Assembly (NCBI GenBank): GCA_964016885.1
Contig: OZ024743.1
Location: forward strand, 362,762,001-362,826,000
Length of the DNA: 64,000 bases
Direction: 5' to 3'
Source of the DNA: Eledone cirrhosa
Taxonomy: Eukaryota
Both the position numbers and the translations under genes were made by a program. Position 1 is the first letter of the stretch. Each line of letters begins with the position of its first letter. The notes under the pieces are model-generated. The model did not search any database and had not been told where the DNA came from. It saw nothing but the letters and a program-made list of their open reading frames with translations. Below, piece after piece: positions 4,305 to 63,750 of this stretch.

Positions 4305-7300
4305 CTACAGGCGTATGATCAGAAAAGGCCCACTCACACGGACCATTCACCCACCTTTCAGCAAATGTACTGGGGGGCAGCACTTCTCACTCCACCCTCA
4401 CCTTTCTTTCCAAGTGAAACTTGAGAAAGTTGATGAGGGATTGGCCGAAGAGAAAAGTGTCTGTCTTCTGTCCTTTCAATCTGGCCCACCATTCAACCTC
4501 TTTCGCTACTGCCACGAGACAGAGGAAAATTGCCTGCCCTTCCTGGCCAAAAGAAGGTGGCGGGTCGATCTTCACAATGGATTCAGCCGATAGCCGGATC
4601 CGTTCTACACGCGACAACAGCTGTTCGACATTACTCCACAAGTCAGTAATGCACGGACACTGGACGAGTGCGTGCAGAACGGTTTCGTCGCTCTGCGCGT
4701 ATCTCGGGCAGGTCAGTCTGACAGCACTTCCGTGCCTGTAGAGTTTATCTCGAACCGGCAGTGCCCCTCGATAGTACTGCCAAGCGAGGGATTTTTGGAA
4801 ATTATCCACGTCCCCGACTCGAAAGTCCTCCGGAACAGACTGTTTAGTTCGACTTCGTCGACGCCCAGAGCCTCTCCGAGAGCGTCGTCTCACTTGCCCA
4901 CCACTAATCCTCTATAGAACTCGAGAGTGGAAGTTTCACTGACCACATTTCCCGCCTGTAGAGAGCAGTGAGTGCCTGGCAACATTCCAGATGCCAGTCA
5001 TCCAGTCTCGGGCTCCTCTTGACCCAGGACTGCAGCTCAGTCAAAGAAACGAGCTGCGGAAAGGCCCGTCTGACAAATGGCGACATAACCTGTTCACCGT
5101 TTAGGCAGAATATCTGGAGATGCCGCAGCCTCAGCGCGTGTCTGCGCATCATTAGCCACAGCATGCCCAGCCCTCCACGTAGAGGGTTCTGGCAGCAGTG
5201 GACCGCCTCACCAACGGAACCTGACCCCTCCACAATAATTTAAAGAGGAGTTGCTCCAAGTTGGCGAGGCGAGAACGGGGGCAAGGGACGACGGTCAGGC
5301 GGTAGTAGATGACGGACGCGATGTACGCGTTCACCATCTCCCCCGACCTTTCAGTGATAGCTTCCTCGCAGCCCATTTCTGGGTGAGACAGGCTACCCTA
5401 CTCGTCACCTCGTCCCAATTCTTATCCGTCTGACCCTAACCAAACCCCGAGTAACTTTACCGGTCCGTCCGTCCAGCGCCCAACGACGCTGTTGGACGAC
5501 ATGGACTTTCCTCCCCAGATGCCGAGTTGCAAGCCCACCGACCTTTCCGGGTTAAGCTTTGCTCCCGTCAACCTTTCATATTCCTCCAATAAGCTGCCGA
5601 CCACCTCGATTTCTGAGATGTCCGATACCATCACGGTGATGTCGTCCGCATAAGCCGGCACAGCCTTTCCGCGTCCTGATTCGAGCGGGATGCCCTGCAA
5701 CAGCTCCAGCCTCCACAGTAAAGGCTCGAGAGTCAATACGTACAGAAGGGAGGAGAGAGGGAAACCTTGACGGACCGATCGGGAGATCTGAAACGGTTCC
5801 GAGAGGTGGCCATTAACTTTGACCACTGACCAGATGCCGCTGTGCATTGCAGCGATCCAGCTTCTGAAGACGGGCCGAAGCCAGCTGCCTTAAGGACAGC
5901 CTCCAGGTACCGATGGTCGACCCTATCGAATGCTTTTGATTGATCTAAATTGATCAGAAACCCACCGAAGCCAGGTTTACACCCTACCCTCTCTATGATA
6001 TATCGAATCAGTTGGAGGTTTTCGTGTATGGACGTGGTTGGGATTGCCAAGTTTGCGCCTCCCCAACCAAATCCTTGACGACAAGCGCCAACCTCTTCGC
6101 TAACACCTTGACCAAAATCTTAAACTCTGTATGGAGCAGGGTATGGGCCTGAAATTGTCTAATGTGTCCCTCTTGTTCTCATCTTTCCATATCAGCGTCA
6201 CTATGCCCCGGCTCACAGAACTGAACTGGGATTACTCTCGTTTTGCTGCCAGTTGCAGTAGAGCGCTTCGAGGAGATTGGAGAACAAGTCTGGCATATTT
6301 ACGTAAAGCTCGTAGGCAGACCATCCAAACCTGGTGACTTGCGCCTCATGCAGCCGACAAGGGCATCCTGAATCTCTCGGCTGAAGTAATCGGCCTTTCG
6401 CAGCGCTCAGAGTCAGCTGTCGAGAGTTGCGGCAAGCCATCGAGGTAGGGACTGAAGTCCGCCACCGTCTCTGACCCGCCACTTCCCCCGAACAACCGAG
6501 CAAAATGTTGGCAAAAGGCCTCACACATCCGCTTGGAGTTGCTCAGCTCGTGTCCGTCTCGGTCCGTCAAAGACTGAATCGTGGTTTTATTACCACGCGG
6601 GCCCATCGAACAGCTTTGGTTCCTTCGTTTCTCAGAACACGCGCCTTAGCTCTGACAATCCAACCTTCGTGTTTCGCATTGAAGAAATGATCTAATGCCA
6701 TTCTCGCCGCTAGTTCGTCAGTTGCAATTCCACTACCAATATCCTCGTCTAACTTATCTAGCAGCTCCCCCTCCTTTCTATTTTTCTCTAACGCTACTTC
6801 TTTGCTAAACCCTATCGACATTACTCTAATCTCTCTTTTGAGAGCCCCCCACCATCTATTGTTGACGACTCCTCCTGTCAACTTTTTCTTAACTAAATTG
6901 TTGACCCGGTCCCAGTAAGCCTTGCGTGCTGGAAACGACATGTTCAGCTTCCAGTAACCAGGTCCTAGCCTACGCGTCTTATCTAGGTCGACCATACAGA
7001 TCACAAACTTGTGATCTGAATAGGCGACCGTATGTAATTGTGGACACCCTATACTATCCTTATCCACTAATCTAATTAGAAACCTATCTAAGTACGATCT
7101 AGATGTACCTAAACGATTTGTCCAGGCCCACACTGGCGCATTAGGGAAATCTAGTCGGTACCTGTCAGACAGTTGGAACTGGTTGATAAGGTACTTGAGA
7201 CTTTTGACAGTCCCAGCGTGCGTCTAAGATGCCGTTCCGGTCCACCGCTAACAGTAAAAGGCGAAACGTACCCAGAAAGGCTTCCAGGCGTCTAAAGAAA

Positions 7301-7660
7301 TCCGGCCGTCCTTCCCCTGTAGGGGCGTAGAGGGCCACTAGTCTAAAGGCACCACCTTCGCTATTGTTCACGTACAGGACCACCAGCTTACCGTCCAGGT
7401 CTTGGAAGATCGACCATACCTCGAGATCCAGACTTTTCCTAAACAGCACCCCCCCCCCCTCTCATTCCCGGCGGACTAATAGATGCAAAGATCTGATAGT
7501 CGTCGAAAATGGGGGCTTGTGCGCGCGTGTCGGAAATCCTGGTCTCGCTGACGGCAAGTGCATCCATTTCTAGAGACCTGAGGTCGTTGAGCAGGTGACC
7601 CTGCTTCCAGGACGATCCCAGGCCTCTAACATTTAAACATCCTACTCTTAATATCGCCAT
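4305..7660 (-). pseudogene. ORF2 of copy A (APE endonuclease + reverse transcriptase), frameshifted
   Basis: Fragments MAILRVGCLNVRGL, SYLDRF, SDHK, GPGYWKLN, LDQSKAFDRVDH, AYADDIT, CPRYAQSDETVLHALVQC distributed over several frames. Confidence 0.9.
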
Positions 7661-7693
7661 GTTGGCAGGCTAAATGAGAGAGGAAAGGTTTAC

Positions 7694-8303
7694 TTACCTC
7701 CCGGGCTCTTGTGAAGGTCGGGTGGTTCGACCTCCAAATTTGGTGGGGTTTCTTTGGGGAATCCCTTTAAAAGCCTACTTGAGGCTTTTACACTAGGTGT
7801 TCCCACGTCGTTGGGGAAGCCCTCCCTAATTGTTTTATAATTGCTTAGTGCCATTCGCACCAGCAAAAGTGTTTGTGGCACCTTGAAGGTGCAGGTGTTA
7901 AATACCTCCCCCTCTTTCTCTATTTCCTTACTTCGTGTTATTAGGTTTTGTGTTCGATTTCCTCACTAACACGAAGTTAGGTGTTGTTATGGTTGTAAGT
8001 TGTTGCTGTGTATTTTCTTTTAGTTGTTTGTGTTAGTGATAGTGTTGTTGGTGGAGATGGTGTTTGTGTTGACGGTTGTGTTTTTGCGGGGGAGGGTGTT
8101 GTAGTATGTGTGTCTGTGTTTGGTGCCAATGTGTCTTTTTTCTTTGCTGTTTGTGTTGGTGTGTGAGATTTCTTCTTGTGTTTTCTTTTTTGTCTTTTTT
8201 CTTTTTTAGCTTTTGGTGTTCCTCCTCATTTTCGCTTAGTGATGAAGAGGTTTCTGTGTTTGTGTCAGACGTAAGTGACAGTGCGTGTATGGGTGTGTGT
8301 GTT

Positions 8304-8355
<52 letters not shown>

Positions 8356-9792
8356 TGAGAGGGAGGGCGGGAGAGCTTCTTTGGAGTGGCCCCTGGGTAG
8401 TCTTGGTTGGCTTTGCAGTTGGTTGTTGTTGGTTCTGCTGGTGTTGCTGCTGCAGATTTTGTTGTTGGTGTTGTTATTTCGCGAAGAGGCCCCGGCGTCA
8501 GCAGCAGTGGAGAATTTTGACCCCTTGCATTTTTCAACAGCTGAGAGTAGGAGGCTCGCAAGTGTGTTTTTTCGCCGCAACCGAAACAGTGCGGCCTTTT
8601 ACCCCTCAGCCATCACTTGTAGAGCCGTCCCGTTTTGGAGGCGGATTTTCTCCAGGATTTTCTTTATCTCTTCAGGTTTTATCTGGAGATACTTCTTGTC
8701 CTGGTTACCTTTATTTGGGCGTCATCTGACACCTCCACAATCACGCATCCCAAGAGCCACCACATATCTAGTCCAGGTGGAATCCTGGGAATGCGGACGC
8801 TAATTGTTCTTTTTCCCATGTGGGAGGGGTACATAATAACCTTGCTGGTTTTGCAAGGGGTTTTTCGAGTGCTTCAAAGCGTTGGCCTCCGACTTAAACA
8901 GCATGGAGATGATGTCGTAATGTTGACCCCTCACTACGTACTCTGTATCTCCTCTGATGCATCTCAGCGCAGCCTCGACGTCCGCTTGGGGAGAGGTTAT
9001 GGCTCTTTTCTTCTCAGCTGTGATGCATCTGAAGACCAGAGTTCTCTTCTCCGCCGCTTCTATGACCTCTGCCGAGACAGTTAAGTTGGCCCAGGTTTGC
9101 TCCTGTTTGATGAGCTTCCATGCCTGAGCCAACTTCGCTTCCTTGTCTGTCAAGTCCATGTTGAGGCATGGCCTTTTCTTTGCTGCTGCCGCAGCGAAAA
9201 TGTTCTTGTTGTTGTTGTTGTTGTTGTCGTTGTTGTTGTTGTTGTCGTTGTTGTTGTTGTTGTCGTTGTTCTTGTTGGTGTTGTTGCTGTTATCACTGTT
9301 GCAGTTGGTTATATCTTTGGGGTCGCCGCTGCTGCTGCTCTCGGTGCAGCTGGAATTGTTGCTGTTGGTGCTGTCGCTGTTTATGTTCTGGTTAGTGGTG
9401 TTAATTTCGTTGTTGTTTTCGTTGATATTGTTGCTGCTGCTATTGTTGTTATTGTTGTTGTTGTTGTGGTTGTCACTGTTGTAGATATTGTTGTCTTTGT
9501 TGTCGTTCTTTCAGTTGTTTTTGTTGTTGTCATTATTGCAGTTGTCGTTGTTGCTGGTGCTGTTGTTCTTGTTCACGACTGTTTTTTTTTTTTTACTGTT
9601 TTTGGTAATGTCGCTGTTGTTGCTGTTGTCATTTTTGTTTATATTTGTGTTCTCACTGTTGTTGCTGGTGTTGTTGCCTGATGTTTTGTTACATTTTAAA
9701 ATTGTTGCGGGAGGGGCAGCGTTTTTAACTGCAAAGTTTGACTCGCTGTCGCAAGTCAGTAAACTCAATGTAGGGGGGCGTGACTCCGCCAT
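7694..9792 (-). pseudogene. ORF1 of copy A (Asn/Thr-rich N-terminus, degenerate zinc knuckle), frameshifted
   Basis: MAESRPP start, (AAC)n-encoded low complexity, RPHCFGCGEKTHLRAS, C-terminal block FPNDVGTPSVK similar to the other copies. Confidence 0.75.
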
Positions 9793-10274
9793 GTTTTTGT
9801 TTTTTTGATAAAAACTTACTTTTAAACACACAAAGTTTAAATATTTGGGCCAAATGGCCCAAATATTATGTGGAGTCCTTTCTTGGGGTTAAAGACTAAA
9901 GTCTTATTTCCCGTTTGAAACAAAAATATTAATGACAAACCTATTTCAAACCGTAGAAAAAACAAATTTACGAGCTCACGATAGTACGTCCGTTCGCTTC
10001 AGCGACCAATAATAATAATAATGATTTCATTTATTGGCCACAAGGGCCGACATATAGGGGACAACACAATAGACAGGGACAGTGGGGGTTTACATAGAGA
10101 TCGAGTAAGTATAAATAACAAAAAACAAAATAACAATAAAAATACAACAATGAAAGTTCCCCAATAAGAGGGATCACCACCCAGGGTTGACTCAAGCACC
10201 CCACCAGTCCTGAGCCACCCGACGCTCCTAGGGCACCCGGGAAGGGAACCCCTCTCCTTCTCGAATTCACCAGC

Positions 10275-13200
10275 CTACAGGCGCATGATCAGAGTAGGCC
10301 CACTCACGCGGGCCATTCTCGCCACATTCACCCACCTTTCAGTAAATGTACTGGGAGGCAGCACTTCTCTCTCCACCCTCACCTTCCTTTCCAAGTGAAA
10401 CTTGAAGAAGTTGATGAGGGATTGGCCGAAGAGAAAAGTGTCTGTCTTCAGTCCTTTCAACCTGGTCCACCATGCAACCTCTTTCGCTACTGCCACCAGG
10501 CAGAGGAAAATTGCCTGCCCTTCCTGACCAAAAGAAGGCGGCGGGTCAATCTTCACTATGGACTCGGACGATAGCCGGATCCGTTCTACACGCGACAATA
10601 GCTGTTCGACATAACCCCACAAGTCAGCAATGCACGGACACTGGGCGAGTGCGTGCAGAACGGTTTCGTCGCTCTGCGCGCATCTCGGGCAGGTTCGTCT
10701 GACAGCACTTCCGTGCCTGTAGAGTTTATCCCGAACCGGCAGCGCCCCCCGGTAGCACTGCCAAGCGAGGGATTTCTGGAAGTTATCCATCGTCCCCGGC
10801 TCGAAAGTCCTCCGGAACATACTGGTCAGTTCTACTTCGTTGACGCCTAGAGCCTCTCCTAGTACGTCATCGTACTTGCCCTCCACTAATCCTCTATAGA
10901 AATCTTGAGTGGAAGTTCCACTGACCTCATTGCCCACCTTGCAGAGTGCAGTGAGCGCCTGGCAACATTCCAGATGCCAGTCGCCCAGTCTCGGTCTCTT
11001 CTTGACCCAGGACTGCTGCTCAGTCAAAGAGATGAGCTGCGGAAAGGCCCGTCTAACAAACGGCGACCACACCTGTTCACCGTTTAGGCAAAATATCTGG
11101 AGATGTCGGAGCCTCAGCGCATGTCTGCGCATCATTAGCCACGGCATGCCCAGCCCTCCACGAAGAGGGTGCTGGCAGCAGATGGACCGCCTCACCAACG
11201 GGACCCGTCCCCTCCACAAAAATTTGAAAAGGAGCCGTTCCAAATTGGCGAGGCGTGGACGGGGGCAAGGCACGACGGTCAGGCGGTAGTAGATGACGGA
11301 CGCGATGTACGCGTTAGCCACCTCCGCTCGACCTTTCAGGGATAGCTTCCTCTCGGCCCATTTCTGGGTGAGAGAAGCCACCCTGCTCGTCACCTCGTCC
11401 CAGTTTTTGTCCGTCTGGAGGTCTGGACCGAACCAGACCCCTAGCAATTTAACCGGTCCGTCCGTCCAGCGCCCGACGACGCTGTTAGACGGCATGGACC
11501 TGCCTCTCCAGGTGCCGAGCTGCAGGCCCACTGACTTTTCCTGGTTGATCATTGCTCCTGTCACCGCTTCGTATTCTCTTAGTGTAGTGCCGATCGCCTC
11601 GATGTGTTTGGCGTTCGACACCACTACGGTGACATCGTCCGCATATGCTGACAAGGATCTTCCACATTCTAGTTCGCGCGGGACCCCCCTCAACGTCTCC
11701 AGTTTGTGCAGTAATGGCTCGAGAGTCAATACGTACAATAGGGACGAGAGGGGACATCCTTGGCGGCCCGAGCGCATGATGTTGAACGGTTCCGAAAGGT
11801 GACCGTTCACTCTCACTACAGAGCAGATGTCGCTGTGCATGGCAGCGATCAAGCCTCTGAAGACGGGCCCAAAGCCAGCCGCCCTCAGGACTGCCGCTAG
11901 GTAACGATGGTCGACCCTATCGAAGGCTTTCGACTGATCTAAATTGATCGATGTATCGCATGAGGTGGAGGTTGTCGTGGATGGATCTGTCGGGAATGGC
12001 GCATGTCTGTGCCTCTCCCACCAGACCACCAACGACAAGCGCCAACCTCTTTGCTAGCACCTTGGCCAAAATCTTGAACTCTGTGTTTAGCAGAGTTATG
12101 GGCCTAAAATTATCTATGTTATCCCTCTTGTTCGGATCCTTTCTCAGCAGCGCCACAGCTCCTCGGCTCACAGAGCTGGGAATTCTCCGGTTCTGTTGCC
12201 AGTTGCAGTAGACGTCCGCCAAGAGGCCTCCGAACAAGTCTGGCATTTGTACGTAAAGTTCATAGGGCAGACCATCTAAACCAGGCGATTTACTCCTTGT
12301 GCAGCCAGTCATTGCCTCCCGTACTTCAGCGGTTGTTATCGGCTTTTCGCAACACTCCGCCTCAGTGGCCGAAAGCCGCGGCAGTCCGTCGAGGTAGACA
12401 CTAAAGTCCATCCCTCGATCCGGCCCGTCACTGCCCCCGAACAGTTGAGCGAAGTGTCGCTGAAAAGCTTCACACATTTGCCCGGGATCGAGTAGCATGC
12501 GCCCGTCGTGGTCCACCAAAGACCGGATCGTGGCTTTGTTGCAACGACGCGCCTCCACCACTCGGGCCCATTGAAAGGCTTTCGTCCCCTCGTGTCTGAG
12601 AGCATGCACCCTAGCTCTGACAACGCAGCCTTCGTGCTTTGCATTGAAGAATTGGTCAAGGGCCAATTTCGCCGCAAGTACGTCGGTCGCGTTGCCTTTG
12701 CTAAGCGCCTCGTTTAATTTTCTAACTAATTCTCCCTCTGCTCTATTTTTCTCTATTGCTAAAGCCTTACTAAACCTAATGGACTCTATTCTAATTGCTC
12801 TTTTCAGAGCAAACCACCACTTGTTGTTGACGATGGCCCCTGTCAACGCCCGCTTAACTAGTTCGCTAATCCGGTCTCTGTAGGCCTTGCGCGCTGGTAA
12901 GGAAGCATTTAGCTTCCAGTAGCCGGGTCCTCGTCTATGAAGCCTATCTAAGTCAAGCACACAGATCACGAATTTCTGGTCTGTGTAGCTGACTATCTTG
13001 AATTGTGGACAGCCTATGCTAGACCTATCTATTTCCCTACAAAATACTCTATCTAGATATGATCTGGATGACACTATGCGATTTGTCCAAGTCCACATTG
13101 GTACATTCGGGAAATCCTATCCGTACCTGTCAGACAGTTCAAAACGCCTGAGCAGGTTGGTGAGACTCTTGCACCCTCCTCCCCTATCCACTAATCCCAC

Positions 13201-13658
13201 ACAGTCCCAGCGTGCATCTAAGATCCCGTTCCAGTCGCCCACTAACACTAAAGAGCGGGACGGTCCAAGAAAGGTCTCCAGACGCCAGAAGAAATCAGGC
13301 CGCCCTGCTCCTGTCGGGGCATAGACGGCCACTAACCTGAAAGCTTGCCCGTCTCCGCTGGTCACGTCCAGCACCACCAACTTACCTTCTGGGTCCAGGA
13401 AGATGGCCCGTATGGCAAGATCCAAACCTCTCCGAAAAAGCACAGCAACTCCCCCCCCCCCGATCCCGGACGGCTGGGAGATGCGTACACCTCGTAGCCG
13501 CCGAAGATCGGTGCGAAGGCCCGTGCTTCGGAGATTCTGGTCTCGCTGATGGCCACTACATCTATGTTTAGTGACCTGAGGTCGTTGAGCAGGTGGCCCT
13601 GCTTCCATGACGACCCCAAACCACGCGCATTTATGCTGCCTATTCTGAGTGAGGTCAT
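10275..13658 (-). pseudogene. ORF2 of copy B (APE + RT + Cys/His domain), few frameshifts
   Basis: ORFs 13362-13658, 13117-13692, 11917-13098 and 10275-12038 with SINARGL, GDWN, SPGLDG, FRPITLLN, QGCPLS, YADD, CPRC motifs. Confidence 0.92.
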
Positions 13659-13692
13659 ATTGAAAAGGAGTGGAAAAGATGGGAAAGACCAC

Positions 13693-15639
13693 TTACCTTA
13701 CTTCTCGTAGAGGAAGGACGGTTTTTCCATCCTTTTCACTGCTGGTGGCCTCCTCAGGAAGGATGTCCTTATAAATCCTCCTGGAGAGTGCTTGTCGGAA
13801 GTCTCCAATGTCTTTGGGGAATTTTTATGTGATGCGACTGATTTGTATGTGTGGAGGTGGTGTGAATTTTTGGGTTGTTGTGTAGTCTTTTTCTGTGATG
13901 CTGGTGTTGTGTTGGATGTAGTGTAATAATTGGTTGTTGTTCAAATTTAATGCTGTGTAGTGTGTATCGTTTTGGTTGTTTTGTTTTGTTTGCGTTTGTT
14001 GTGGGTTTCTTTCTGTTTCGCATTTTGGTGACTTTTGTGGTGTAGGTGATGGTGGTGTTGGGGTTAATGATGGTGATGGTGTTGGTGTTTGGAGTGATGG
14101 GGTTGGTGATACTGGTGTGGGTGGTGGCATATCTGTCCTAACTTTTTTGTTTGTTAATTTATTTGTTTCCCTCTGTATTTTGTTTTTGGAGGGGGAAGGA
14201 AGAGAATTTTTTCTCTTTTGGTTTCTTTTTTTTTTTCCTGACACCGTTTCCCACTACTCGTCGTCACAATCTGTCTCCAGTTGTGATAGGCCGGGGAGTG
14301 GAAAATCCTCCACAGGCGTTAGTTTTGGTTGTGGCGTGGTGGATGGTGTAGGCGCCAGTGCTAGTTCTGAAGCGCTGGGTGGTGGTGGTGTTGGTTTTGC
14401 TGGTGGTGGTGGTGTTGGTTTTGCTACTGTTGCTGGGTTTGTTGCTGTTATAGTTGCTTCTGTTGTTGCTGCTACAGTTGTTACTGCCATCTCTGCTACT
14501 GGTGGTGTTGATGGTTGAGTCACTGGGGTGGGTAGGAGAGGTGGCCTCAACCTTTTAGCCTGAGGGCAGAAAGCCCTTAGGTGGGTTCCTTCACCACAAA
14601 CGACACACCTAGGCCTTCTGCCTTCGACAATTACGGTGAGGTGGCTGCCGTCAGTGAGGTCTATTACCTCTGGGATCTCCTCAATGCTTTTTTGGTCCGC
14701 TTGGATCAGGAGCTCCATCCCAGATCCGGACCAGTTCTCCTGCTTTTCTTTTGCTATTGCTATTATCTTTGTGTTGGCTTCGATGCCGGCGAGGACGGCC
14801 GCTATTAGCCAGGGAATTTCGATGGCTGGTGGAACGTGGGTCACCCTGATCTTTACGAGTCTCTGGCCACAATAGCTTGGGACGAGTGTGAAGTCGTCAC
14901 TTCTTAATGGGGCCATGGAGTGTTCTCTAGCCTCCTCTGGTGTTTCAAAGAACACGTCCACGGTTCCATACTTCTGTCCACGTCTGATGTAGGTTTTTCT
15001 TGCCCACACATGTCCCAAAGCTTTTTGGATTTGGGACTCGGATGCCCGTTCCACTCGGCGCGATTCTACATTAATTGTTCGATGCTCCATTTTATTAGGT
15101 GGCGGGGGGGGGGCTGACCCTGTACCCATCTTTCTTTACCATTTTTTTGGCATTTTCTAATTCCTCCTGAGTTACCGTAAATGCTTCGCACTGTTTTGTT
15201 ACTCTGGCAAAACTCAGGGTGGTTTTTTTAATGTCATTGTTGCTGTTGTTGTTATCGTTATTTTTGTTATTATTAATTTTAGTTTCAGTTGTGGTGGTGG
15301 TGGTGACGTCAGTGGTGTTCGATGTGGATGAGTTCATTTTGGTTGAAAACATTTCGACATTAGGAGTTGATTTATTTTTCCTTTTGTTTCTGTCGTCGCG
15401 GTGGTGGGGGGGGGGAGGGTCGCGGTGGTGGTGGTGGTGGTGGCTTTAACACCTGCAGTCATTGGTAATGGCGGGAAATGAATGTCTGCCTGAGACAAAT
15501 TTAAAATATTGCTACTGCTTATATTTTTTTTAGTGTTGGCAAACGTAGTAACATTTACAATGGTGGTGTCGGTGTGAGGTGTTAATTTGTGAGGAAGGCT
15601 CTCAGCTGCTTGGTGCAGAGGTGAATTAGCCATTTTCAT
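13693..15639 (-). pseudogene. ORF1 of copy B (gag-like, CCHC zinc knuckle)
   Basis: EGRRPRCVVCGEGTHLRAFC in ORF 14254-15129; Pro/Thr-rich linker; ends LREVR-stop. Confidence 0.85.
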
Positions 15640-15842
15640 TTCAAAGAAATTTTTTGATAATCATAAAAGTTTAAATTTTGGGCACAAGGCCCCAATCTTT
15701 TTGGGTGTCCTTTTCGGAAAACAATATATGTGCGCTTATAAACAGTTAACAATAACATTTTCCATAAATGGCAATTTTTAACAAACGGAAATAACAAACC
15801 TTTGCGGAGCTCACGATGATACGATTTACTATGTAGGTCGCC

Positions 15843-23943: not shown

Positions 23944-26572
23944 CTAAAGGAATAAGGGTGGGGAGTTCAGGCCGGAGGGAGTGTGGGTCTGTAAGATGAA
24001 GATGGTTCTTTGTTCAACTCTGAGGAGATTGGCGGGTGTTCCGTGGCAGTGGAGTAGGCCACAGACTGTGAGATGGCGTGCGGAATGTCCAGGGGCACCA
24101 AAGTGGCGTGTGATGGGGGAACTACCATCTAGACGAATATCCCGGAGGTGCTCAGTGAATCGGTCCGCCAGGCGACGTCCCGTCTGCCGACGTAAGTCGC
24201 GCTGCACTCCGTGCAGCGAAGTCCGTAGACTAGGTTGGAGGAGGTGCAGCGGAAGGCATGCCGGACAGAGAGAGAGTGGCCGTTGGGACCCTGGAAGGTG
24301 GTGGTGTTGGTGATGTGGGGACAGGTGTTGCAGCGGCGACTAGAACAGAGAAAGGAACCGGGGGGGAGCGTGGGTTGGGGGTAGGGAGCTGTGGACGAGG
24401 AGGGTGCGGAGATTGCGTGCGCGTTTGAAGGAGGAGAGTGGTGGGGTTGGGAAGATGTGGGAGGTGGAGGGGTCGGACTGGAGGCGTCGGAAGAGGCGGC
24501 GGATGGTGCGGTGGAGGGGTTAAGGTGGAGGGGTGGTAGGTGATGGGGAAGGGGAGACGGTGGGTGGGTGTGCGGTGGCGTGGGGTGAGGGTGGTGGAGC
24601 GGTGGACAGCACGGGCGCGGGTGAGAGCGGTGTGGACGAGAGAGTGGGGTAACCTCTGCGTTTGAAATGGCTGACTAGGGAAAGGGCCTGGGACCCGAAG
24701 TCAGCATCTCGGCTACAGAGGCGGCGGGGTGGGAGGGGTGGAAGGAGCAGCAGAAGGAGAGAAAGGAGTCGAGCTGTTCTCGGGTGAGGGTCGTGGCTCC
24801 AATACAGTTGTCGATGTAACGACCGTACAGTTCGGGCGTGGGGCCGGTGTACTGGGCAAAGATTTGGGCCTCAACATGGCCAACAAAAAGGTTGGCATAG
24901 TTCGGGCCCATTCTTGTACCCATGGCTACCCCCGTGACCTGTTGGTAAAACTCACCCGAGAAGGAGAAACAATTGAGGGTGAGGACCAGCTCGGCGAGGC
25001 GAAGGAGGGTGGGGGTGGAGGGAATATGGGAGGGGCGAAGGTCGAGGTAGTGTTTGAGGGCGCGTAGGCCGTCGGCGTGGGGGATGACGGTATAGAGGGA
25101 CTTGATGTCTAGGGTGCAGAGGAAGGGCTGTGCCGGGTGGGTAGGTGAAGGAGTCGAAAAGGCGCAGGGCGTGGTTGGTGTCGGAGATGTGGGAGGGGAG
25201 GGTGGTGACAAGGGGGGCGAGGATGGAGTCGAGAAAGGCGGAGATGAGTTCGGTAGGGCAGTTGCAAGCGGAGACGATGGGGCGCCCGGGGTTGTCGGGT
25301 TTGTGGAGTTTGGGGAGAAAGTAGATGGTGGGGGTGCGGGGGTGCGGACGATGAGGTGGGAAGCGGTGGGGGGATGGGGGAGGAGGAGACAAGGTGTTGG
25401 ATGGTGGAGGAAACTTGTTGTTGGTAGAGGGGTGTGGGATCGGAGGGTAGAGGGCGGTAGAAGAGGGGTTACAGAGCTGCCTGAGGGCTTCGGCCGTGTA
25501 GAGGTCCGCGCGCCACACCACTACGGCGCCTCCCTTGTCCGCCGGTTTGATGACGATGTCATCTCGGCTACAGAGGGAGCGGAGAGCGAGGAGTTCCCCC
25601 CGTGAGATATTATTCCGTTTGGAACGGTGGCGGAAGTCGAAACGATTTACGGCGCTACGGCTGGCATCGACGAACGCGTCCAGGGTGCTAAATTGCCCTG
25701 GGGCCGGCGTCCAAGAAGATGGTCGTCGGCCCAGGGCGAGAAACGGGTCTGGGGCGTCCGGAGCCGGTGGCGTTCGGCCGAAATGTGCCTGTAGCTTCGT
25801 GCGTCGCACGAATCGCTCGACTTCCGTTCGGGTGCGGAACTCGTCGCTGTGCGGAGTGTGGGGTATGATGCGAAGGCCTCTACTAAGGAGTGAGCGCTCA
25901 GGTGCGGAGAGGGGGAGGTCAGGGGGTATGGTGACAACAAATGGTGGGGTTTGGGTGTGAGGGGTGGGGGGAGTGGGTAGGGGTGGGGGTCGAGGGAGGG
26001 GTGGAGAGTGGTGGGCTCATGGGGATGGGCGGGTGGTGGTGGATGGGGGTGGTTGGGAGGAGTGAGTGTAGCTTGCGGGCTTTGGTGGAGCTGAGGAAGG
26101 AGGAGAGGTTGTGGTTGAGGTTTTGGATGAAGGAGAGGATGGCTTGGGCGAGGAGGGGTTCGCAGGTGGAGTTAAGGCGGAGGAGGGTGGGGGTCAGTTG
26201 GTGGTCAAGTTGGCGGAGGGTGGAACGGGAGGCGCGGATGGAGTTGCGCATCAGGAGGCGTGAGGATCGGGTGAGGATACGTTGCATGGAGGGGGAAGCG
26301 GCGGGGGAAGGGTGGAAGTGTAGACGGAAGCCGAGGAAGTGAGGAAAAGTGAGGAAAAGTTTGAGGCTAGTATGTAGTTGGTGGAGAAAGGATCTCAGGC
26401 TGGGCATGGTGGGCGTTGGGTGAAAGCAGGGGGAGGGATGAGAAAGCAGGTGTGTGAAGCGGGGTGGAGTGAACGAAGGAGTGAGTGCGAAGGATTGGCA
26501 GAGACGGGGAAAGGAAAATGAAACAGAAAAACGTAAGGAGGGGGAGAGTATACACAGGAAAATTAAAGACAA
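23944..26572 (-). pseudogene. Penelope RT + GIY-YIG polyprotein, frameshifted
   Basis: ORFs 25919-26572, 24952-25809, 24675-25211 and 23944-24207 are collinear parts of one PLE ORF. Confidence 0.88.
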
Positions 26573-26827
26573 AAAATCATAAAGGTAAAAACACAGGCAA
26601 TCGTGAACAAAAAATCATAGAAATAAAATTGTAAGAACACAGGCAAAAAATCATATACGAAAATAAACAAGTACAGTAACAAAATCAAACAAAGGTAATG
26701 CGTGGAAGGAAAGACCAAGTGTGGGAAGGTGTGTAAAGTTCAGAGAGTGGTCACGGTGGATTAGATCGGGGTTGACTCGGTTGTTAAGTTATGTTCCAAA
26801 GGAATGGAAGCCGTGTGAGCGTGTATT

Positions 26828-27349: not shown

Positions 27350-28230
27350 ATAAATGAAAAGTATAGAAAATATTGTAGCAAGAAGCCAACAGTATTCCAT
27401 AATATATAAGTGACTATAGCGTCAAAATGGGAAAATAGTTAACGTAAGATGTGGGAAAAATAATTCAAACTCAATTCAAAAAGAATCAGGATATAGATTC
27501 ATGCAACAGAATTTAGTGAAATCCAAGGAAAAATCAATAGAGCTTAACTCATGATAAAATAAAGTTTAAAATACTCATCCTTCAATTTGGAAAAACTACA
27601 AATGCTCTGTATAGTCTTGAAAAGACTATTTCACGAAAAATTTTCAGTGGGGATGGTCACGGTTGGAATTCGATCCTCAGCACAGCTCAACACGATAGCC
27701 AAAATCTCACTGATTATAATATGCCAAAAAGGGAATTTAAAAGCAGGCTAGTTCAACATCATGCGTGATTATGAAAATAAAACGCACATGCGGAAACAGG
27801 GCTGGTGACGTCAGAATGAGACGAATGTTTGTTTACATGAAACAACAGTCAAAAACATTCCGAAAAAAACTCTACAATAAGGAGTTCAGCAAAAAGCAAT
27901 ATTATCGCGGTTATTTTAAAAAAAAAGACCGGGATTAATCACAAATAATTTAAGCACTCTAAGAAAGAAATCCGAGTATTAATATAAATGAAAAGTATAG
28001 AAAATATTGTAGCAAGAAGCCAACAGTATTCCATAATATATAAGTGACTATAGCGTCAAAATGGGAAAATAGTTAACGTAAGATGTGAGAAAAATAATTC
28101 AAACTCAATTTACAAAGAATCAGGATATAGATTCATACAACAGAATTTAGTGAAATCCAGGGAAAAATCAATAGAGCTTAACTCATGATAAAATAAAGTT
28201 TAAAATACTCATCCTTCAATTTGGAAAAAC
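27350..28230. repeat. Pair of ~245 bp direct repeats (27350-27597, 27985-28230) around a ~390 bp spacer
   Basis: TAAATGAAAAGTATAGAAAATATTGTAGC...CAATTTGGAAAAACTA present twice, nearly identical. Confidence 0.85.
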
Positions 28231-28266
28231 TATATATATATATATATCAGAGTATACGAAGGAGCC

Positions 28267-28968
28267 ATGGAAAAGTATAAGACCCTCATAGAACTGGACA
28301 TGAAAGGAATTTGCCCATTATACAGGAGCAAATCATGGAATAGCTTAGATAGGGCTAGACATAAGATAGGGAAAGCCACCTCATGGTACGACAACCAGAG
28401 ATACCAGAGTGTCATGTTTGTGGACGCCACGCCTGGACGGAAATTAGCTAATCAGTGTAAAAAGGCCCTGAGAAAGACCCACTTAAAAATAAAGGTGGTA
28501 GAAAAGCCAGGAACCACCATAAAATCCCTGATCAGCAAAACCTACCCTTTTAAGAAAACCCACTGTACCAATAGGAAATGTATCATATGTAAGGTGAACC
28601 CCCGGATAAACTGTAAAACTAGAAACGTAGTCTATAGCATAAGATGTACAGAGGGTACTTGCAGAAACATGACAACAACATACATAGGTGAGACAGCTTG
28701 TAGCATAGGTGAAAGGATAGACCAACACTGGGGGCAACTAAAAGGACGAAAAAACGGGTCAGTACTATACGAACATGCTAGACAACAACATGACGGTAAC
28801 ATAGACAACATAGAAATTAGAATAATATCTAAACATAGAAATGACCCAGCAGATAGGCAAATCAGAGAGGCCAGTGAAATAGAAATTAGAAGACCAAAGC
28901 TAAACAGAAAGAATGAATGGAATAACAACAACACCCAAACAAACAACACTGACCTAAGAGAAGTATAA
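28267..28968 (+). CDS. Penelope C-terminal region: Cys-rich linker + GIY-YIG endonuclease (partial ORF)
   Basis: HCTNRKCIIC, NCKTRNVVYSIRC, YIGET, ERIDQH, RQIREASEIEIRRPKLNRK; uninterrupted 233 codons. Confidence 0.85.
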   Translation: MEKYKTLIELDMKGICPLYRSKSWNSLDRARHKIGKATSWYDNQRYQSVMFVDATPGRKLANQCKKALRKTHLKIKVVEKPGTTIKSLISKTYPFKKTHCTNRKCIICKVNPRINCKTRNVVYSIRCTEGTCRNMTTTYIGETACSIGERIDQHWGQLKGRKNGSVLYEHARQQHDGNIDNIEIRIISKHRNDPADRQIREASEIEIRRPKLNRKNEWNNNNTQTNNTDLREV

Positions 28969-49772: not shown

Positions 49773-50513
49773 GTGGGCGGCAGAGCCAAAGGAGAGTGTA
49801 GAGACCTACCTTTCTGCTTCCCGGGGTTCGGGTCGCACGACTTCCATGGGGTCGGGGGTGTTGGGTGAAGGGGTGTCTTGTGGTGGTGTGGGGTTGTCAG
49901 TGTGGGTGGGGTTGGGGTGTTTGGAGTTGTGTTGGGGAGGGGAAGGGGAGGGGGAAAGCTTTTTAGGAGGACGCGGTTTATGGGTTTGACAGAGGGTGGT
50001 CCTACGTCCTCCTTAAAATCCTTTTTTAGTTTTTGGTAGAGGTTCATTGGGACCTTTATTAATTTTAATTGTGGATTGTTTTCTGAAAAAACAAAATTTA
50101 CCCCTTCGGTTTGTACCGAAGGGTTATTGTTTATGAGTTCATTTAATTTATTATTGTTTCTGTTGATGTAAGTATAGTGTAATGTCTTTTTTTCGGATGG
50201 TGTGAGTGTTTCGAAGAGGGGAGGGGCAGGTTTGGTTTTGTTTGTTGCTGGAGGGGTGTTTTGTGTTTTGTTGGATTGTGTTGACATTTGGGTAGGGGCT
50301 GTTGGGCCTTGTGTGTTTTGCACATGTTTTCTTTTTTTTCTTTTAATCTGTCTGAAGGACTCCGTTTCTTCCTCCGAATTCGTTGGGTTATCTTCAGTGT
50401 TGGAGGGAACAGGTATGTTTGCTGGTAGTGTTTCCGTGTTAGTTTTCTTTGGGGGGGGGGGATGTCACTATGTTAGACTGTGTTGTGTGTTGTGGCTGCG
50501 GTGGTTGTGTTGT
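46690..50513 (-). mobile_element. Tx1/L1-clade retrotransposon copy C, 5'-truncated and lacking its 3' end; (TATC)n-associated
   Basis: Begins mid-ORF1 directly after the (TATC)n tail of D; ORF2 breaks off after HCPGVADLC into degenerate TATC/TACC repeats; closely similar to copy F. Confidence 0.92.
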
Positions 50514-50796: not shown

Positions 50797-53700
50797 CTAC
50801 AGGCTGATATAGAGAGAAGGCCCATTCACTCGGGCCATTCTCGCCACTTTCACCCACCTTTCATAAAACTTGTTGGGGTACAGCACCTCTCTCTCCATCC
50901 TGATTCTTCTTCCAAAGTGGTATTTGAAAAAAAGAATCAGTTGTTGGCCGGAGAGAAAGGTGTCTGACCTCAGCCCTTTGAACTTTGTCCACCATACAAC
51001 CTCTTTCGCCATAGCTATCACACAAAGGAAAACCGCCTATCCTTCCCTTTTGAAGGAGGGTGGCGGTTTGATCTTGACAATGGACTCGTTGGTCAACTGG
51101 ATTGGTCCCACCCGCGACAATAGTTGTTCCACATAGCCCCACAGGTCGGTGACGCCCGGGCAGTGTATGAATGCGTGCGCGACGGTTTCTTCGTCTCGTA
51201 CGCACCTCGGACAGATCTTTTTTGCAAGGTCCCTGCCCGGGCGCCCATGTTTGTAGAGCTTGTCTCGAACTGGTAGAGCTACTCGGTAGCACTGCCAGGC
51301 TAGGGACTTTTGAAAGTTGTCCATCGGTCCCGGGCGGAAGGTCCTACCGAACAGACTGGCCAATTCGTCTTCCTCTACGCCCACAGTTTCACCGAGCACG
51401 TGGTCGCACTTGCTGCGGATCAACCCTCTATAGAATGACGAAGTGGAGTCTCCACTGATCGCCGGGTCCGCCTGCCAGAAGGCTGTGAGCGCCTGAGCAC
51501 ATTCGATGTGCCAGTCGCCCATTTTCCTCGGTCTTTGCTTGACCCAGGACCGCAGCTCGGTCAGCGAGACGAGTCGTGGGAAGGCTCGCCTCACGAACGG
51601 GGCCCACACCGGTTGTCCGGTGAGGAATACGTAGAGATGCCGCAGCCTCAGCGCGTGTTTGTGCATCGTCAGCCACGGCATCCCCAGCCCTCCGTTGGAA
51701 GGGCGTTGGCAGCAGATGGATCTTCTCGCCAAAGGAGCCCGCCTCTTCCAGAGAAATTGGAAGAGCGCGCGCTCCATTTTGGCGAGCGTTTTGGCTGGAC
51801 AAGGCACGACGGTCAAGCGGTAGTAGATGACGGACGCTATAAAAGTGTTCGCCATCTCCGCTCGACCTTTCAAGGATAGTTTGCACTCGGCCCACTTCTG
51901 GGTGAGTGCAAACACCTTGGCCGACACCTCGTTCCAGTTCTTCTTCACCTTGAGGTCCGGACCAAACCAGACCCCGAGCGGCTTTACTGGTCCTTCCGTC
52001 CAGCGTCCGACGACGCCATCGGAAGGCATCGGTTTGCCTCTCCACGATCCGAGTTGCAAACCGATGGACTTATCCCGCTTCAGCCTCGCTCCTGTGAACC
52101 TTTCGTATTCCTTCAGTTAGGTGCCGACTTCCTCGATTTGCGAGGCGCTCGACACCATTACTTCCACGTCGTCGGCGTAGGCCGACGCCGCTTACCGCAG
52201 TCCCGGTTCCAGAGGTATCCCTTGCAATAGCTCCAACTTCCGTAGTTGTGGCTCGAGAGTCAATACGTACAGAAGGGAGGAGAGAGGGCATCCCTGTCGA
52301 ATGGAACGGCTCCGAGATGTGGCCGTTCACCTTAACCCTTGAGCAGATGTTGCTGTTATGCATTGCAGCAATCCAGCCCCTGAACACGGGTCCGAAGCCT
52401 GCCGCCTCGAGCACTGCATCCAGGTAACGATGGTAAACCCTATCGAAAGCTTTAGACTGATCCAAGTTGATCAGGGCCCCACCGAAGCCGGGTTTACACC
52501 CTACCCTCTCTATGATATATCGCATGAGGTGGAGGTTGTCGTGTATGGACCTGGTCGGGATTGCGCATGTCTGCGCTTCTCCCACCAGGTTCTCGACGAC
52601 AAGCGCCAGCCTCTTTGCCAACACCTTGGCCAAAATCTGTAACTCTGTGTTTAGCAGAGTTATGGGTCGGAAGTTGCCTATGTCATCTCCCTTATTCTTG
52701 TCCTTCCCGACTAGTGTGACTACGCCCCTGGTCACAGAACTGGGAATTCTCCCGTTCTGTTGCCAGTTGCAGTAGACCGCTTCCAGGAGACCGGAGAATA
52801 AGTCCGGCATTGCTACGAAAAATTCGTAGGGTAGACCGTCGAGACCTGGTGATTTGCGTTTGCCGCATTGGCTCAACGCGTCCCCTATCTCATAAGCTGA
52901 AATCGGCTTTTCGCAGAACTTCGCCTTGCTGTCCGAGAGTCGCTGTAGGTCGTCGAGGTATGGACCGAAATACATAGCCCCTCCCGGCGCGCGACCCTGT
53001 CCGAACAGCTGAACAAAGTGCCGCTGAAAGTCCGCACACAACTGCTTCGGCTCACGTATCACGCGCCCGTTTTGGTCCTTCAAAGACCGAATCGTGGACT
53101 TGTTGCCACTTTTTGCCTCCGTCACTCGGGCCCAGCTAACAGCTTTGGCTCCCTCGTTTCCCAGAGCACGTATTTTGCTTCTGACAACGCAGCCCTCATG
53201 CTTTGCGTCGAAGAACTGGTCCAAGGCCGTTCTCGTTGCTAGCACGCTGGCTACGTTGCCACTTCTAATTGCCTCTTCTACTTTATCTACCAGTTCTTTC
53301 TCAGTTCTAATTCTATCTAACGCTAATTCTTTACTAAAAACTAACGAGTCTAATCTAACTGCCCTCTTGAGAGAGTACCACCATCTGTTGTTGACAATGG
53401 TCCCTGTCAAGTGTTGTTTAACTAAAGTGCTAATCCGTCTACTGTAGGCTTTGCATGTCGGTAACGACAAGTTCAGCTTCCAGTAGCCGGGTCCTTGTCT
53501 ATGGGTTCTATCAAGGTTGACCATGCAGGTCACTAGTTTGTGATCTTAATAGGCAACCATGAACATTTGTGGACAGCTTAACATGTCCCTATCCTTATTT
53601 CTAACTAGAACCCTATCTAGGTACGATCTAGATGTTCCGCTGCGATTAGTCCACGTCCACAGTGGCACAGTCGGAAAATCTAGTCGATATCTATCGGCCA

Positions 53701-54220: not shown

Positions 54221-54257
54221 GTTGGTTCTGAAAAGTTAAAAGAGGAGAAGAAAACAC

Positions 54258-55033
54258 TCACCTCTTCGTCTCCCGGGGATCAGGCCGCACGGTTTCCATT
54301 GGGTGTTAGAGGAGTTGTCTGGGTGGGTGGTGGTTTCCGGTGGGGTGGGGACGGAGATGTTTGGTGGGGTGGTGGTGTCTGGGGTGAGGGTGGGGAAACT
54401 TTTTAAAAGGACGCGGTTAATGGGTTTAACACAAGGATTACCCACGTCCTTAGGAAAGTTTTCCTTTAAAGACTTATAGGTGTCCGTAGGGACCCTAATC
54501 ATCTTTAAATTAGGTTTGTCTACACAGTTCGAAAAAGTTTTCCCTTCGGTTTTCACCGAAGGGTCGTTGGAGATGACCTCCATTAAAGTTTTGTTTTTAC
54601 TGTTATGTATGTGTAATGTTCTTGTTCTGTTGCGGTGGTTTTTGTCTGTTGTTCTTGTGGGAGCTTTCGTTTTGTTGTAGGTGTTTGTGTTTGGAGTGAT
54701 GTTGTCGTGGTTTTGTTTTCGGGACGGGGGGTTTTTGTTTGTAATGTTTGTGTTGTTTGTGTTGGTGGTTGTATGTTTGTAGTGATGTTTGTTGTTTTTT
54801 TTGTTCTTGTGGTGTCTTTTCTTCTTTCTTTTCGAACGGAGAGGCTCTCGCTCATCATCACTTGGTGATGATGTGGGGGCCTCGTCCGTTGTGGTCTCTG
54901 TGTTATTTGGAAGGGGTATGTTTTGGGGAGCTGTTGTGTTTGTGGGTGTTTTTGCAGTGGTTTTAGGTGGAGTGGGTTGGGTGGGACTGTGCTTGCAGGT
55001 TGGTTTGTTGTTCTTGTTTTGGTTGTGTTTGCG

Positions 55034-58005: not shown

Positions 58006-61000
58006 CTGGAGATTGAACAACCCGATCTCCAGGAAACGAAAAGGTAAGTGCACCCTTCCGTCCTTTTTCTCCAACTCTTCTTCACCAACATGTTTCGGAA
58101 GGAACTGGACGTCGAAGTACAGCAAGTGCACTTGGACCCGGAGGGTAGACTGGTAGTCCTAGACGTCAACAGTATTGGAGGTGGAGCCTTCAGACTGGTG
58201 GCCGTTTATGTCCCGACCGGGCAATCGCAATCACGGCCAGACTTCTTTAAGCGTCTAGAGTCTTTTCTGGGAACGTCTCGCTCTTTACTTTTAGTGGGGG
58301 GATGGGATGGTATCCTAGATGCACGATGGGACTATGTGGGAACATGCCCCAGTAGAGGGTGATGCAACAGCCTCAAAACTTGAATCAGCCAATTCCAACT
58401 GGCCGATAGGTATCGACTGGATTTCCTGACTGCACCACAGTGGACGTGGGCAAACCGCAGCGGGACATCTAGATCGTATTTAGATAGGTTCTTCATTAGA
58501 GAAAGGGACAAGGAGATGTTAAGCTGTCCACGAATGCACATGGTTGCCTATTCAGATCACAAATTAGTCGTCTGCTTAGTCAACCGTGATAGAATACATA
58601 GACAAGGAGCCGGATACTGGAAGCTGAACGTAGAGCTTACAGTGAACGGATAAGTAGACTAGTCAAGCAACAGTTAACGGGAGCCATCCTCAACAATAAA
58701 TGGTGGTACTCTCTCAAGAAAGCGATTAGAATAGATTCGATAGGGTTTAGCAGAGAGTTAGCCTTAGAGAAAAACAAAATAGAAAGAGAACTAGTAGCCA
58801 AGGTAGAGAAGGCACTTAGAAGTGGCAACGCGGCTAGAGTGTTAGCGTCGAGAAGGGCACTGGACCAGTTCTTCGATGCGAAACACGAAGGCTGCGTGGT
58901 CAGAAGCAAAACACGTGCTCTAGGAAACGAAGGAGCGAAAGCTGTCAGCTGGGCCCGAGTGGCGGAGGCGAAAAGTGGCAACAAGTCCACGATTCGGTCT
59001 TTGAAAGACCAAAACGGACGCGTGCTACTTAACCCCAAGCAAATGTGCGCGGTCTTTCAGCAGCACTTTGCGCGACTGTTTGAGCAGCACGACGGTGAGC
59101 CGAACGGGGCAATGGACTTTAGTTCATACCTCGACAACATGCCGCGTCTCTCGAACACGGACGCCGAGTTCTGCGAAAGACCGATCACGGACACTGAGAT
59201 ACGGGACGCTCTGGGCCGCTGCGAGAAATGCAAGTCACCCGGTCTAGGTGGTCTACCCTATCAGTTTTACATAGGCATGCCGGACTTGTCCTCTGGCGTC
59301 CTCGAAGCCGTCTACTGCAATTGGCAGCAGAACTGGAGAATTCCCAGTTCTGTTGGCAAGGGCGTAGTAACGCTGATCAGGAAAGACGAGAACAAGGGGG
59401 ACGAAATTAACAACTTCAGGCCCATAATCTGCTCAACACAGAGTTAAAGATTTTGGCCAAGGTGCTAGCGACGAGGTTGGCGCTTGTCGTCGAGAACCTG
59501 GTAGGGAAAGCGCAAACGTGTGCAATCCCGACCAGGTCCATACACAATAACCTCCACCTCATGCGATACATCATAGAGAGGGTGGGTAGTAAACCCGGCT
59601 TCGGTGGGGCTCTTGTCAATTTGGATTAGTCTAAGGCATTCGATAGGGTCGACCACCGATACTTGGAAGCGGTTCTCAAGGCGGCCGGTTTCGGTCCCGT
59701 GTTCAGAAGCTGGATCGAGGCGATGCACACCAGCATTTGCTTGAGGGTCAAGGTGAACGGCTACCTATTGGAGCCGTTCGCAATCACGCGTTCCATTCGA
59801 CAGGGGTGCCCTCTCTCCTCCATTCTGTATGCATTGACTCTAGAGCCACTACTGAGGAAATTGGAGCTGTTGCAGGGCATCCCTCTAGAACCGGGACTGC
59901 GGAGAGCGGCGTCGGCTTATTCTGACGACGTGACGGTAATGGTGTCGAGCACCTCGGAAATCGGGGTGATCGGCAACTTACTGAAAGAATACGAAACGCT
60001 GACGGGAGCAAATCTAAACTCGGACAAGTCTATCGGTTTGCAACTCGGTACGTGGAGAGGCAAACCGATGACGTCCGACAACGTCGTTAGACGCTGGACG
60101 GACGGACCGGTGAAATTGCTCGGGGTCTGGTTCGGTCCAGACCTCCAGGTGGAGAAAAACTGGAACGAGGTCACGGCCAAGGTGTTTGCGCTCACCCAGA
60201 AACGGGCAGAGTGCAAACTGCTTTGAAAGGTCGAGAGGAGGTGGCGACTACTTTCATAGCGTCCGTCATCTACTACCGCTTGACTGTGGTGCTTTGTCAC
60301 CGTGACCACCTCGCTAAGATGGAACGCATGCTCCTCCAGTTTCTGTGTAAGAATCAGGCTCCGCTAGTGAGGAGATCCGTCTGCTGTCAGCACCCTTCCA
60401 ACGGAGGGCTGGGAATGCCGTGGCTTATGATGCGCAAACATGCATTGAGACTGCGGCATCTCCAGGTATTCCTCACCGACCCCCAACCGGTGTGGGCACC
60501 GTTTGTGAGACAGGCTTTCCCACAGCTTGTCTCGCTGACGGAGCTGCAGTCCTGGATCAAGGAAAGACCAAAAACGATGGGCGCCTGGCACATTGAACGC
60601 GCTCAGGCGCTCACAGTCCTCTGGCAAGCGGGCGCAGCAATAAATGGAGACTCCACTTCGACATTCTATACAGGGATTGTACGTTACAAGGGCGACGACG
60701 TGCTGGGAGAGACTCTGGGCATCGAAGACGATGAGCTCACCAGTCTGTTTGGTAGGACTTTCCGCCTGGGACCTATGGACAACTTCCAGAGGTCCCTGGC
60801 CTGGCAGTGCTACCGAGGAGCTCTACCGGTTCGTGACAAGATCTACAGGCACGGACGCCCCGGCAGGGATCCTTTCACGAGATGCGCGCAGGACATTGAA
60901 ACAGTCCTGCACGCAATTGTACACTGCCCGGGCGTAACCGACCTGTGGAACTATGCAGAACAACTGCTGTCGCGTATGGGACAAATCCAGTTGACTGCCG

Positions 61001-61523
61001 AGTCCATAGTAAGGATCAAATCGCCAGCCTCTTAGAAAAACGAAAGAGAGGCGGTTTTCCTCTGTACGGTGGCTATGGTGAAACAAGTTACATGGTGGAC
61101 GAGATTGAAAGGAGTGAGGACAGATGCCTTTCTCTCCGGACAACAATTGATTCTCTTCTTTAAGTATCACTTTAGAAGGAGAATCAGAGTGGAGAGAGAG
61201 GCACTGCACCCCAGTAAATTTACTGAAAGGTGGGTGAATGAAGCGAAAATGGCCCGAGTGATTGGGCCTTCTCTGTTTATAAGCCTGTAGGTCGAAGAAG
61301 AGAGCAAAGGGAAGAAAGGTGCACTTGCACAACACGCTCCTGGAGTTGAGGGTTGTTCTATCGACGGGGTATTAAACAACCCATTTGTGGCGCCTCCCCC
61401 CTATTGGGGATTTCGATTGTTGTAATTGTTTGTTTTTATATTTTTAACACGACTGTATGTAAAGTGCCCGGCATGTCTTTGTATTGTCCCCTTTTCTTGT
61501 GCGCCCTTGTGGCTAATAAAGAA

Positions 61524-63717: not shown

Positions 63718-63750
63718 GTCTCTACACTCTCCTTTGGCTCTGCCGCCCAC

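Follow-up and report, generated by a model that had tools for sequence, protein, structure and literature searches.

A conserved 5' splice-site motif at the end of ORF1 in L1-group LINEs of Eledone cirrhosa and its possible role as a U1-binding site

Why should the first open reading frame (ORF1) of a retrotransposon end in what looks like a 5' splice site? This question is raised by a 64,000-nucleotide stretch of the Eledone cirrhosa genome (3.0 Gb; assembly GCA_964016885.1, contig OZ024743.1, positions 362,762,001 to 362,826,000), hereafter the window, which contains six copies (A to F) of a two-ORF long interspersed nuclear element (LINE), several of them head to tail. A preliminary description of the window proposed that splicing from a donor at the end of ORF1 to an acceptor at the ORF2 stop codon removes exactly ORF2. 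We found that the donor motif is conserved far beyond the window and independently of the reading frame. Our tentative preference is that this motif, together with a donor usually present in the 5' untranslated region (UTR), would serve as a U1-binding site that acts mostly without being spliced.

First, we established what kind of element carries the motif. ORF2 matches the Pfam domains Exo_endo_phos (the APE endonuclease), RVT_1 and zf-RVT, and its closest structure in the PDB is human L1 ORF2p (E 7e-52). A separate ORF1 is open in a related genomic locus, L180; comparison of ORF1 with Pfam returned no ORF1 family, and its Atlas neighbours, to be taken as a lead only, are zf-CCHC and ZCCHC3-type RNA-binding proteins (0.90-0.93). 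With an ORF2 that combines APE endonuclease, reverse transcriptase (RT) and zinc motif and a separate ORF1 with RNA-binding and CCHC features, the elements are LINEs of the L1 group. The preliminary description called them Tx1, which is plausible. Insertion into simple repeats or repeated targets is a Tx1 trait, and the copies adjoin (ATT)n or (ATCT)n in tandem arrays, where tail and target could not be told apart. Tx1 is a subgroup of L1 with an RRM/CCHC ORF1, which is compatible with the label (PMC5203782; unless main texts are named, citations here refer to the available portions of a source). The order of parts, with a 5' UTR, a CCHC-type ORF1, a short spacer, an APE-RT-zinc ORF2, a 3' UTR and a simple-repeat tail, and the tandem arrays in microsatellites are also those of L1/Tx1-group LINEs. 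A degenerate ORF2-start pattern, which misses most of the large family B, has 5,786 matches in the genome, and a pattern for the family-B ORF1 end has 2,412. Copy B is likely chimeric, with the ORF1/ORF2 junction of family B and a 3' end of L180 type; locus L168 also looks chimeric, joining an A-type junction to a B-type 3' end. Rfam gave no match in four loci.

All six donors named in the preliminary description are present (the slash marks the putative exon boundary in the motifs below). Copies A, B and E carry AGGTAAGT at 7692-7699 (-), 13691-13698 (-) and 58042-58049 (+), copies C and F carry AGGTAGGT at 49804-49811 (-) and 63712-63719 (+), and copy D carries AGGTGAGT at 54256-54263 (-); the distance of 37-46 nt to the ORF2 ATG was likewise borne out. 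The motif AGGTRRGT occurs 19 times in the window against a mean of 8.6 in shuffled sequence, and none of 100 shuffles reached 19, the copies being related to one another. Among 30 genomic loci, which were the first in position order to match the ORF2-start pattern, 28 have GTRRGT in the spacer region and the remaining two are point variants. The donor is also found in 38 of 39 longer loci with a readable start, many of which are the same elements.

As a null for this conservation we used the ORF2 alignment of 13 representatives, picked among those loci for completeness. Four-fold identity among them is 0.50-0.98, and of 198 four-fold sites 42 (21%) do not vary. At the donor, -1G, +1G, +2T, +5G and +6T are invariant in all 13, +3 and +4 are always purines, and the exonic AG precedes GT in 12. 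By hand calculation, the chance of five such invariant bases is 0.21^5, about 4e-4 for sites picked post hoc, or about 0.01 if only the three coding-free positions in phase 2 are counted. The adjoining spacer varies in length and sequence and is pyrimidine-rich throughout, and the motif always lies ~30-50 nt 5' of the ORF2 start. Within family B, GT is kept in 2,332 of 2,412 copies, a retention that reflects ordinary decay after insertion and is uninformative on selection.

The reading frame provides a further argument. The preliminary description held that ORF1 ends with AGG, a stop codon and GT in all six copies, assuming a small upstream indel in copy A. This does not apply to copy A, where the frame of the conserved LKGFPKETP motif ends ...P-G-G-K-stop; the indel is unnecessary, and the donor stands in phase 1 with the stop after GT. 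The related L180 has an open frame of 642 codons ending P-E-G-K. The donor is in phase 2 in most families, giving the Arg-stop ending, in phase 1 in family A (G/GT AAG TAA), and in phase 0 in a third family, where the motif lies between codons and ORF1 continues for 12 codons. Since it occurs in three reading phases, the motif is no by-product of the ORF1 stop but is kept as nucleotides rather than as a peptide end. A conserved 5' donor, as expected of a GT-AG intron spanning ORF2, is thus present, and its survival through frame shifts and deep family divergence supports it more strongly than the window alone could.

The feature is not general among relatives. No AG/GTRRGT stands at the ORF1 end in the 14 listed distant metagenome loci with upstream sequence (15 listed of 33 returned), which have 24-50% best-segment identity, most 24-31%, and some of which may belong to other clades or be rearranged; one of these loci has GTGAGT inside ORF1. 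The motif therefore looks clade-specific, and in this respect the Eledone elements differ from the readable distant members of the L1/Tx1 group. A close relative from another species (P0006, 65% identical) ends S-M-H-L like family B. Searches of ORF1 homologues for transcript-derived C-termini returned no result.

A second donor-like site lies in the 5' UTR. Of 14 aligned 5' UTRs, 12 have GTRAGT or GTAGGT in the first ~80 nt of the element and two have GTGAGC instead; about 0.04 donor-type matches are expected per 80-nt sense window (hand estimate). The site is at about +70 in one group and at about +35-40 in others, so that not all of these donors need be homologous. The elements L159 and L162 have no other GTRAGT on the sense strand. 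AGs upstream of the ORF1 ATG are common and none is shared among the 5' UTRs; a donor that lacks a shared acceptor suggests that such sites can persist even where they lead to no productive splicing. Searches of the youngest family gave 323 genomic 5' UTRs with the unspliced pattern and none with the altered one. An RNA spliced in the 5' UTR would still contain the two ORFs and could undergo copying in cis, like the human SpIREs (PMC5860796). One joint in L162 (664-832), seen only in run X1 (a run whose kind is not given), skips part of the 5' UTR with GT..CG ends, and no genomic copy matches it. The aligned 5' UTRs also share a GACGT-like motif near the element start, which resembles the downstream promoter element of insect LINEs, and have one or two hairpins before the ORF1 ATG.

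How might these sites work? Both are followed by a U- or pyrimidine-rich run, and such runs after a donor favour U1 binding. U1 can suppress nearby poly(A) sites. A sense AATAAA lies ~250-350 nt upstream of the ORF1-end donor in all four young copies checked, and the four ORF2s of these copies contain one sense AATAAA in total. The donor motifs would bind the U1 small nuclear ribonucleoprotein on the nascent transcript and might help to keep a long intronless RNA at full length, for instance by masking AATAAA signals, ORF1 being A-rich, or by promoting transcription. An occasional splice that removes ORF2 would be compatible with this role: in the Arabidopsis Ty1/copia element EVD, one U1 site serves the splicing of a GAG-only mRNA and also blocks premature 3'-end formation (PMC5580714). 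The frame-independent donors with their pyrimidine runs, the EVD precedent and the placement of AATAAA lead us to rank U1 binding with little splicing first and ORF2 as an intron second; the two can both be true.

In the second explanation ORF2 would be a retained intron of 3.46-3.48 kb. Joining of the donor to an AG at the end of ORF2 would produce an mRNA with ORF1 only, and this would set the ratio of ORF1 protein (ORF1p) to ORF2p. We regard this as possible but doubtful. The same caution applies to its fuller form, in which ORF2 would lie wholly inside a regulated spliceosomal intron and the ORF1-end U1 site would decide whether the transcript stays unspliced as genomic RNA or becomes an ORF1-only mRNA whose junction recreates a near-native stop. 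The direct Ty1/copia precedent, which includes the 3-kb intron of Drosophila copia (PMC5580714), speaks for it. So does the ORF2 end itself, since TAG/G closes ORF2 in 12 of 13 representatives, preceded by pyrimidine-rich codons and followed by a GA-rich run. Moreover, every representative has an AG at the ORF2 end that would give a stop no more than four codons from the junction, often R-stop or S-L-stop, as judged by hand and as weak evidence. The five representatives without an upstream AG, including copy A of the window, have an in-phase stop just after TAG; where no stop follows TAG, there is an upstream AG whose use would bring back the stop of ORF2. Given the choice of two AGs and the inheritance of states, this pattern is suggestive only.

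The acceptor half of the proposal is weaker than the donor half. GCCTGTAG does stand at the four ORF2 ends of the window (4305, 10275, 50797 and 61290), but it is not invariant, as had been claimed: all four complete B-family ends (L147-L150) and the A-type L168 have TGTCTGTAA, and other families end in GTTCTGTAG, ATCCTGTAG or AGACTATAG. In the larger copy set GT after ORF1 held (28 of 30 loci, 13 of 13 representatives), whereas the TAG stop held in all but one of the representatives and failed in family B, whose ORF2 ends CTG TAA with only AAG or GAG nearby. In eight of 13 representatives a competing AG lies seven bases before the stop and immediately follows the pyrimidine run. Third-position conservation in the last 15 codons of ORF2 is ordinary, at rank 334 of 1,125 windows, and the pyrimidine run is predicted to be paired in a hairpin whose bases are for the most part constant, not covarying, across 10 sequences. 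No strong branch point common to the ORF2 ends was seen by eye in the 13 representatives. As an observation apart, three hairpins are predicted across the ORF2 end and 3' UTR (L162:5975-6110 and equivalents; window 61236-61371); those in the 3' UTR show some compensatory changes and are candidates for recognition by ORF2p.

Retrotransposed copies of a spliced RNA would lack precisely the segment from GT to TAG, and targeted junction searches found none. In family B we read all 98 copies without GTA directly after the exon end and the seven without the T-run at +10 to +12 (two overlap); none of these joins the 3' UTR or the ORF2 end, some 2,300 of the 2,412 copies not having been read individually. 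In one copy the sequence continues as unrelated DNA, and in another as an inversion. Six phase-2 families were searched with a degenerate junction probe, which misses the upstream AG and covers neither phase-0 nor phase-1 families; its two matches, against one in the control, are both unrelated. Two matches, both unspliced, also came from a probe that joins one ORF1-end group to any sequence other than the spacer, out of a number that was not counted. These results count against ORF2 as an intron. Because an ORF1-only RNA needs ORF2p in trans, however, the absence of processed copies lowers the probability of the intron without excluding it. For a young family copy six runs are listed, all of unspecified kind and none given as RNA, and contigs from four of them were examined. 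In one of these, run X1, no donor-to-acceptor joint is found among the 15 joints listed (236 more exist; contigs drop rare forms), and single contigs span the donor (2432-2724) and the acceptor (5951-6278); neither was counted as evidence.

Could the donor be used with another acceptor, such as an AG in the spacer, an internal AG of ORF2 or a downstream host exon? Families D and A do have YAG in the spacer, and long deletions begin at the donor or 2-3 nt beyond it in two B copies, of which L054 is left in frame with ORF2, while in L185 the deletion ends after CAG. We examined both as spliced copies and rejected them. Of 39 other copies read, 32 have CGG before the position at which the L054 deletion ends. 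Internal deletions are common in family-B loci (48 rows, most of them with short overlaps and none recognised as a clean GT-AG intron), so that two among 2,412 copies fit the background. Most families lack an AG in the spacer, where an intron would measure only ~30-37 nt; this alternative is quite improbable. The least probable explanation is chance inheritance of an Arg-stop ending. All families do have a common ancestor, and stops in phase 2 fix positions +2 to +4, but the motif is kept in phases 0 and 1 and at four-fold identities near 0.5 while the spacer beside it diverges.

A reason unrelated to U1 is unlikely, though less so: the motif might be a DNA-binding-factor or internal-promoter site or part of a ribosome restart signal for ORF2. 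The tolerated variants (GTAAGT, GTAGGT, GTGAGT, exonic AG) follow the U1 consensus, and the same hexamer occurs at two unrelated places; both argue against such a role. In its favour are the short distance (~30-50 nt) that always separates the motif from the ORF2 start, the presence in one family of ATA instead of the ORF2 ATG, which points to an unusual restart mechanism, and the human L1 5' UTR donor, which is kept because it lies inside a RUNX3 site (PMC5860796). By the same analogy, the 5' UTR motif of the present elements could be a DNA-level promoter site, and this weighs against U1 binding as the preferred explanation. So does the fact that AATAAA is expected by chance in an A-rich ORF1. 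The U1 model also leaves the TAG/G and purine-rich run at nearly all ORF2 ends to coding or structure, and the missing processed copies are also expected if ORF2p acts strictly in cis.

The closest described system is the subgenomic splicing of Ty1/copia elements. These elements (EVD and Drosophila copia, with their shGAG RNAs) likewise have a U1-type donor that is conserved and lies close to where the structural-protein ORF ends; they differ in being long terminal repeat elements with a single gag-pol ORF and demonstrated splicing, whereas the window elements are two-ORF LINEs with their own ORF1 stop and a putative splice (PMC5580714). Human L1 resembles them as an L1-group element with a conserved, seldom spliced 5' UTR donor: ~1.8% of full-length insertions carry one 5' UTR splice. 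There, the donor is kept for the RUNX3 site and spliced copies exist, while none was found here, and the available portions of the source name no conserved donor at the ORF1 stop (PMC5860796). Half-L1 (HAL1) elements, which are ORF1-only, non-autonomous L1 derivatives, show how a retrotransposed ORF1-only mRNA is expected to look (PMC5753468); no such element was found in this genome by junction patterns. A literature search, whose scope left aside most subscription papers, Repbase notes and supplements, found no report of a conserved donor at the ORF1 stop or of ORF2 as an intron in a LINE. In the available text on DIRS-1 only reporter introns are concerned (PMC7192593), the introns of TART lie in antisense RNA (PMC1636488), and the main texts of PMC13282606 and PMC9115989 contain neither "splic" nor "intron".

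The family with ATA at the usual ATG position is young (L174:2554-2600; L156, L158, L172, L173, L123, L125, L136, L137), and L158 and L174 are 99.5% identical around the junction. Its ORF2 frame is open back across the donor, and the ATA has a good start context and overlaps the ORF1 TAG; non-AUG restart or a frameshift is likely in this family. The youngest family (L162:350-640 and 6267-6545) has tandem monomers of 60-72 nt at the 5' side, each with a T-rich run ending in CACAG. Runs X1 and X2 both cover this repeat at very high depth, and it may be a separate abundant repeat used as a target; the youngest-family copies listed lie mostly near contig ends. Elsewhere in the window, at 24675-26614 (-) and 28204-28968 (+), are further retroelement ORFs in decay, Penelope-like by the RT-like and GIY-YIG-like motifs seen by eye, with no Pfam match at 1e-3. 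The features of the six copies are collected in Table 1.

Table 1. Positions of the LINE features discussed, in window coordinates
Feature	Positions	Strand
Copy B, ORF1-end donor AG/GTAAGT, phase 2, TAA stop inside, pyrimidine tract after	13691-13698	-
Copy B, ORF2 (APE endonuclease, RT, zf-RVT; frameshifted), end CTG TAG at 10275	10275-13658	-
Copy B, 3' UTR of L180 type, not family-B type; AATAAA 10035-10030; (ATT)n tail	10010-10274	-
Copy B, 5' UTR and ORF1; near-donor GTGAGC 15814-15809	13697-15842	-
Copy A, donor AG/GTAAGT, phase 1; ORF1 stop TAA 7692-7690	7690-7699	-
Copy A, ORF2, degenerate, end CTG TAG/GT	4305-7660	-
Copy A, 5' UTR and ORF1 (ATG 9792); near-donor GTGAGC 9979-9974	7700-10005	-
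Copy C, donor AG/GTAGGT, phase 2; ORF2 ATG 49772	49804-49811	-
Copy D, donor AG/GTGAGT, phase 2; ORF2 ATG 54220; TTTTCAG in spacer	54256-54263	-
Copy D, end of ORF2 with pyrimidine-rich codons and two candidate AGs: ATC AGC CTG TAG	50797-50830	-
Copy E, donor AG/GTAAGT; 5' truncation of the copy just upstream; ATG 58090	58042-58049	+
Copy E, ORF2 end ATA AGC CTG TAG/GT, then purine-rich run	61257-61290	+
Copy F, 5' UTR donor-like GTGAGT (second conserved site); identical sequence in L159	61673-61678	+
Copy F, ORF1-end donor AG/GTAGGT, phase 2; ORF2 ATG 63751	63712-63719	+

Two open questions of LINE biology are how far more ORF1p than ORF2p is made and how long intronless RNAs escape early termination. 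If either the U1-site or the ORF2-intron explanation is true, these elements would represent a LINE version of the Ty1/copia strategy; in the case of the intron, a non-LTR element would have arrived on its own at a copia-like solution to the ORF1p:ORF2p ratio. Splice sites in human L1 are regarded as a cost (PMC5860796). The opposite would hold for a LINE clade that numbers thousands of copies and actively retains its U1-type donors.

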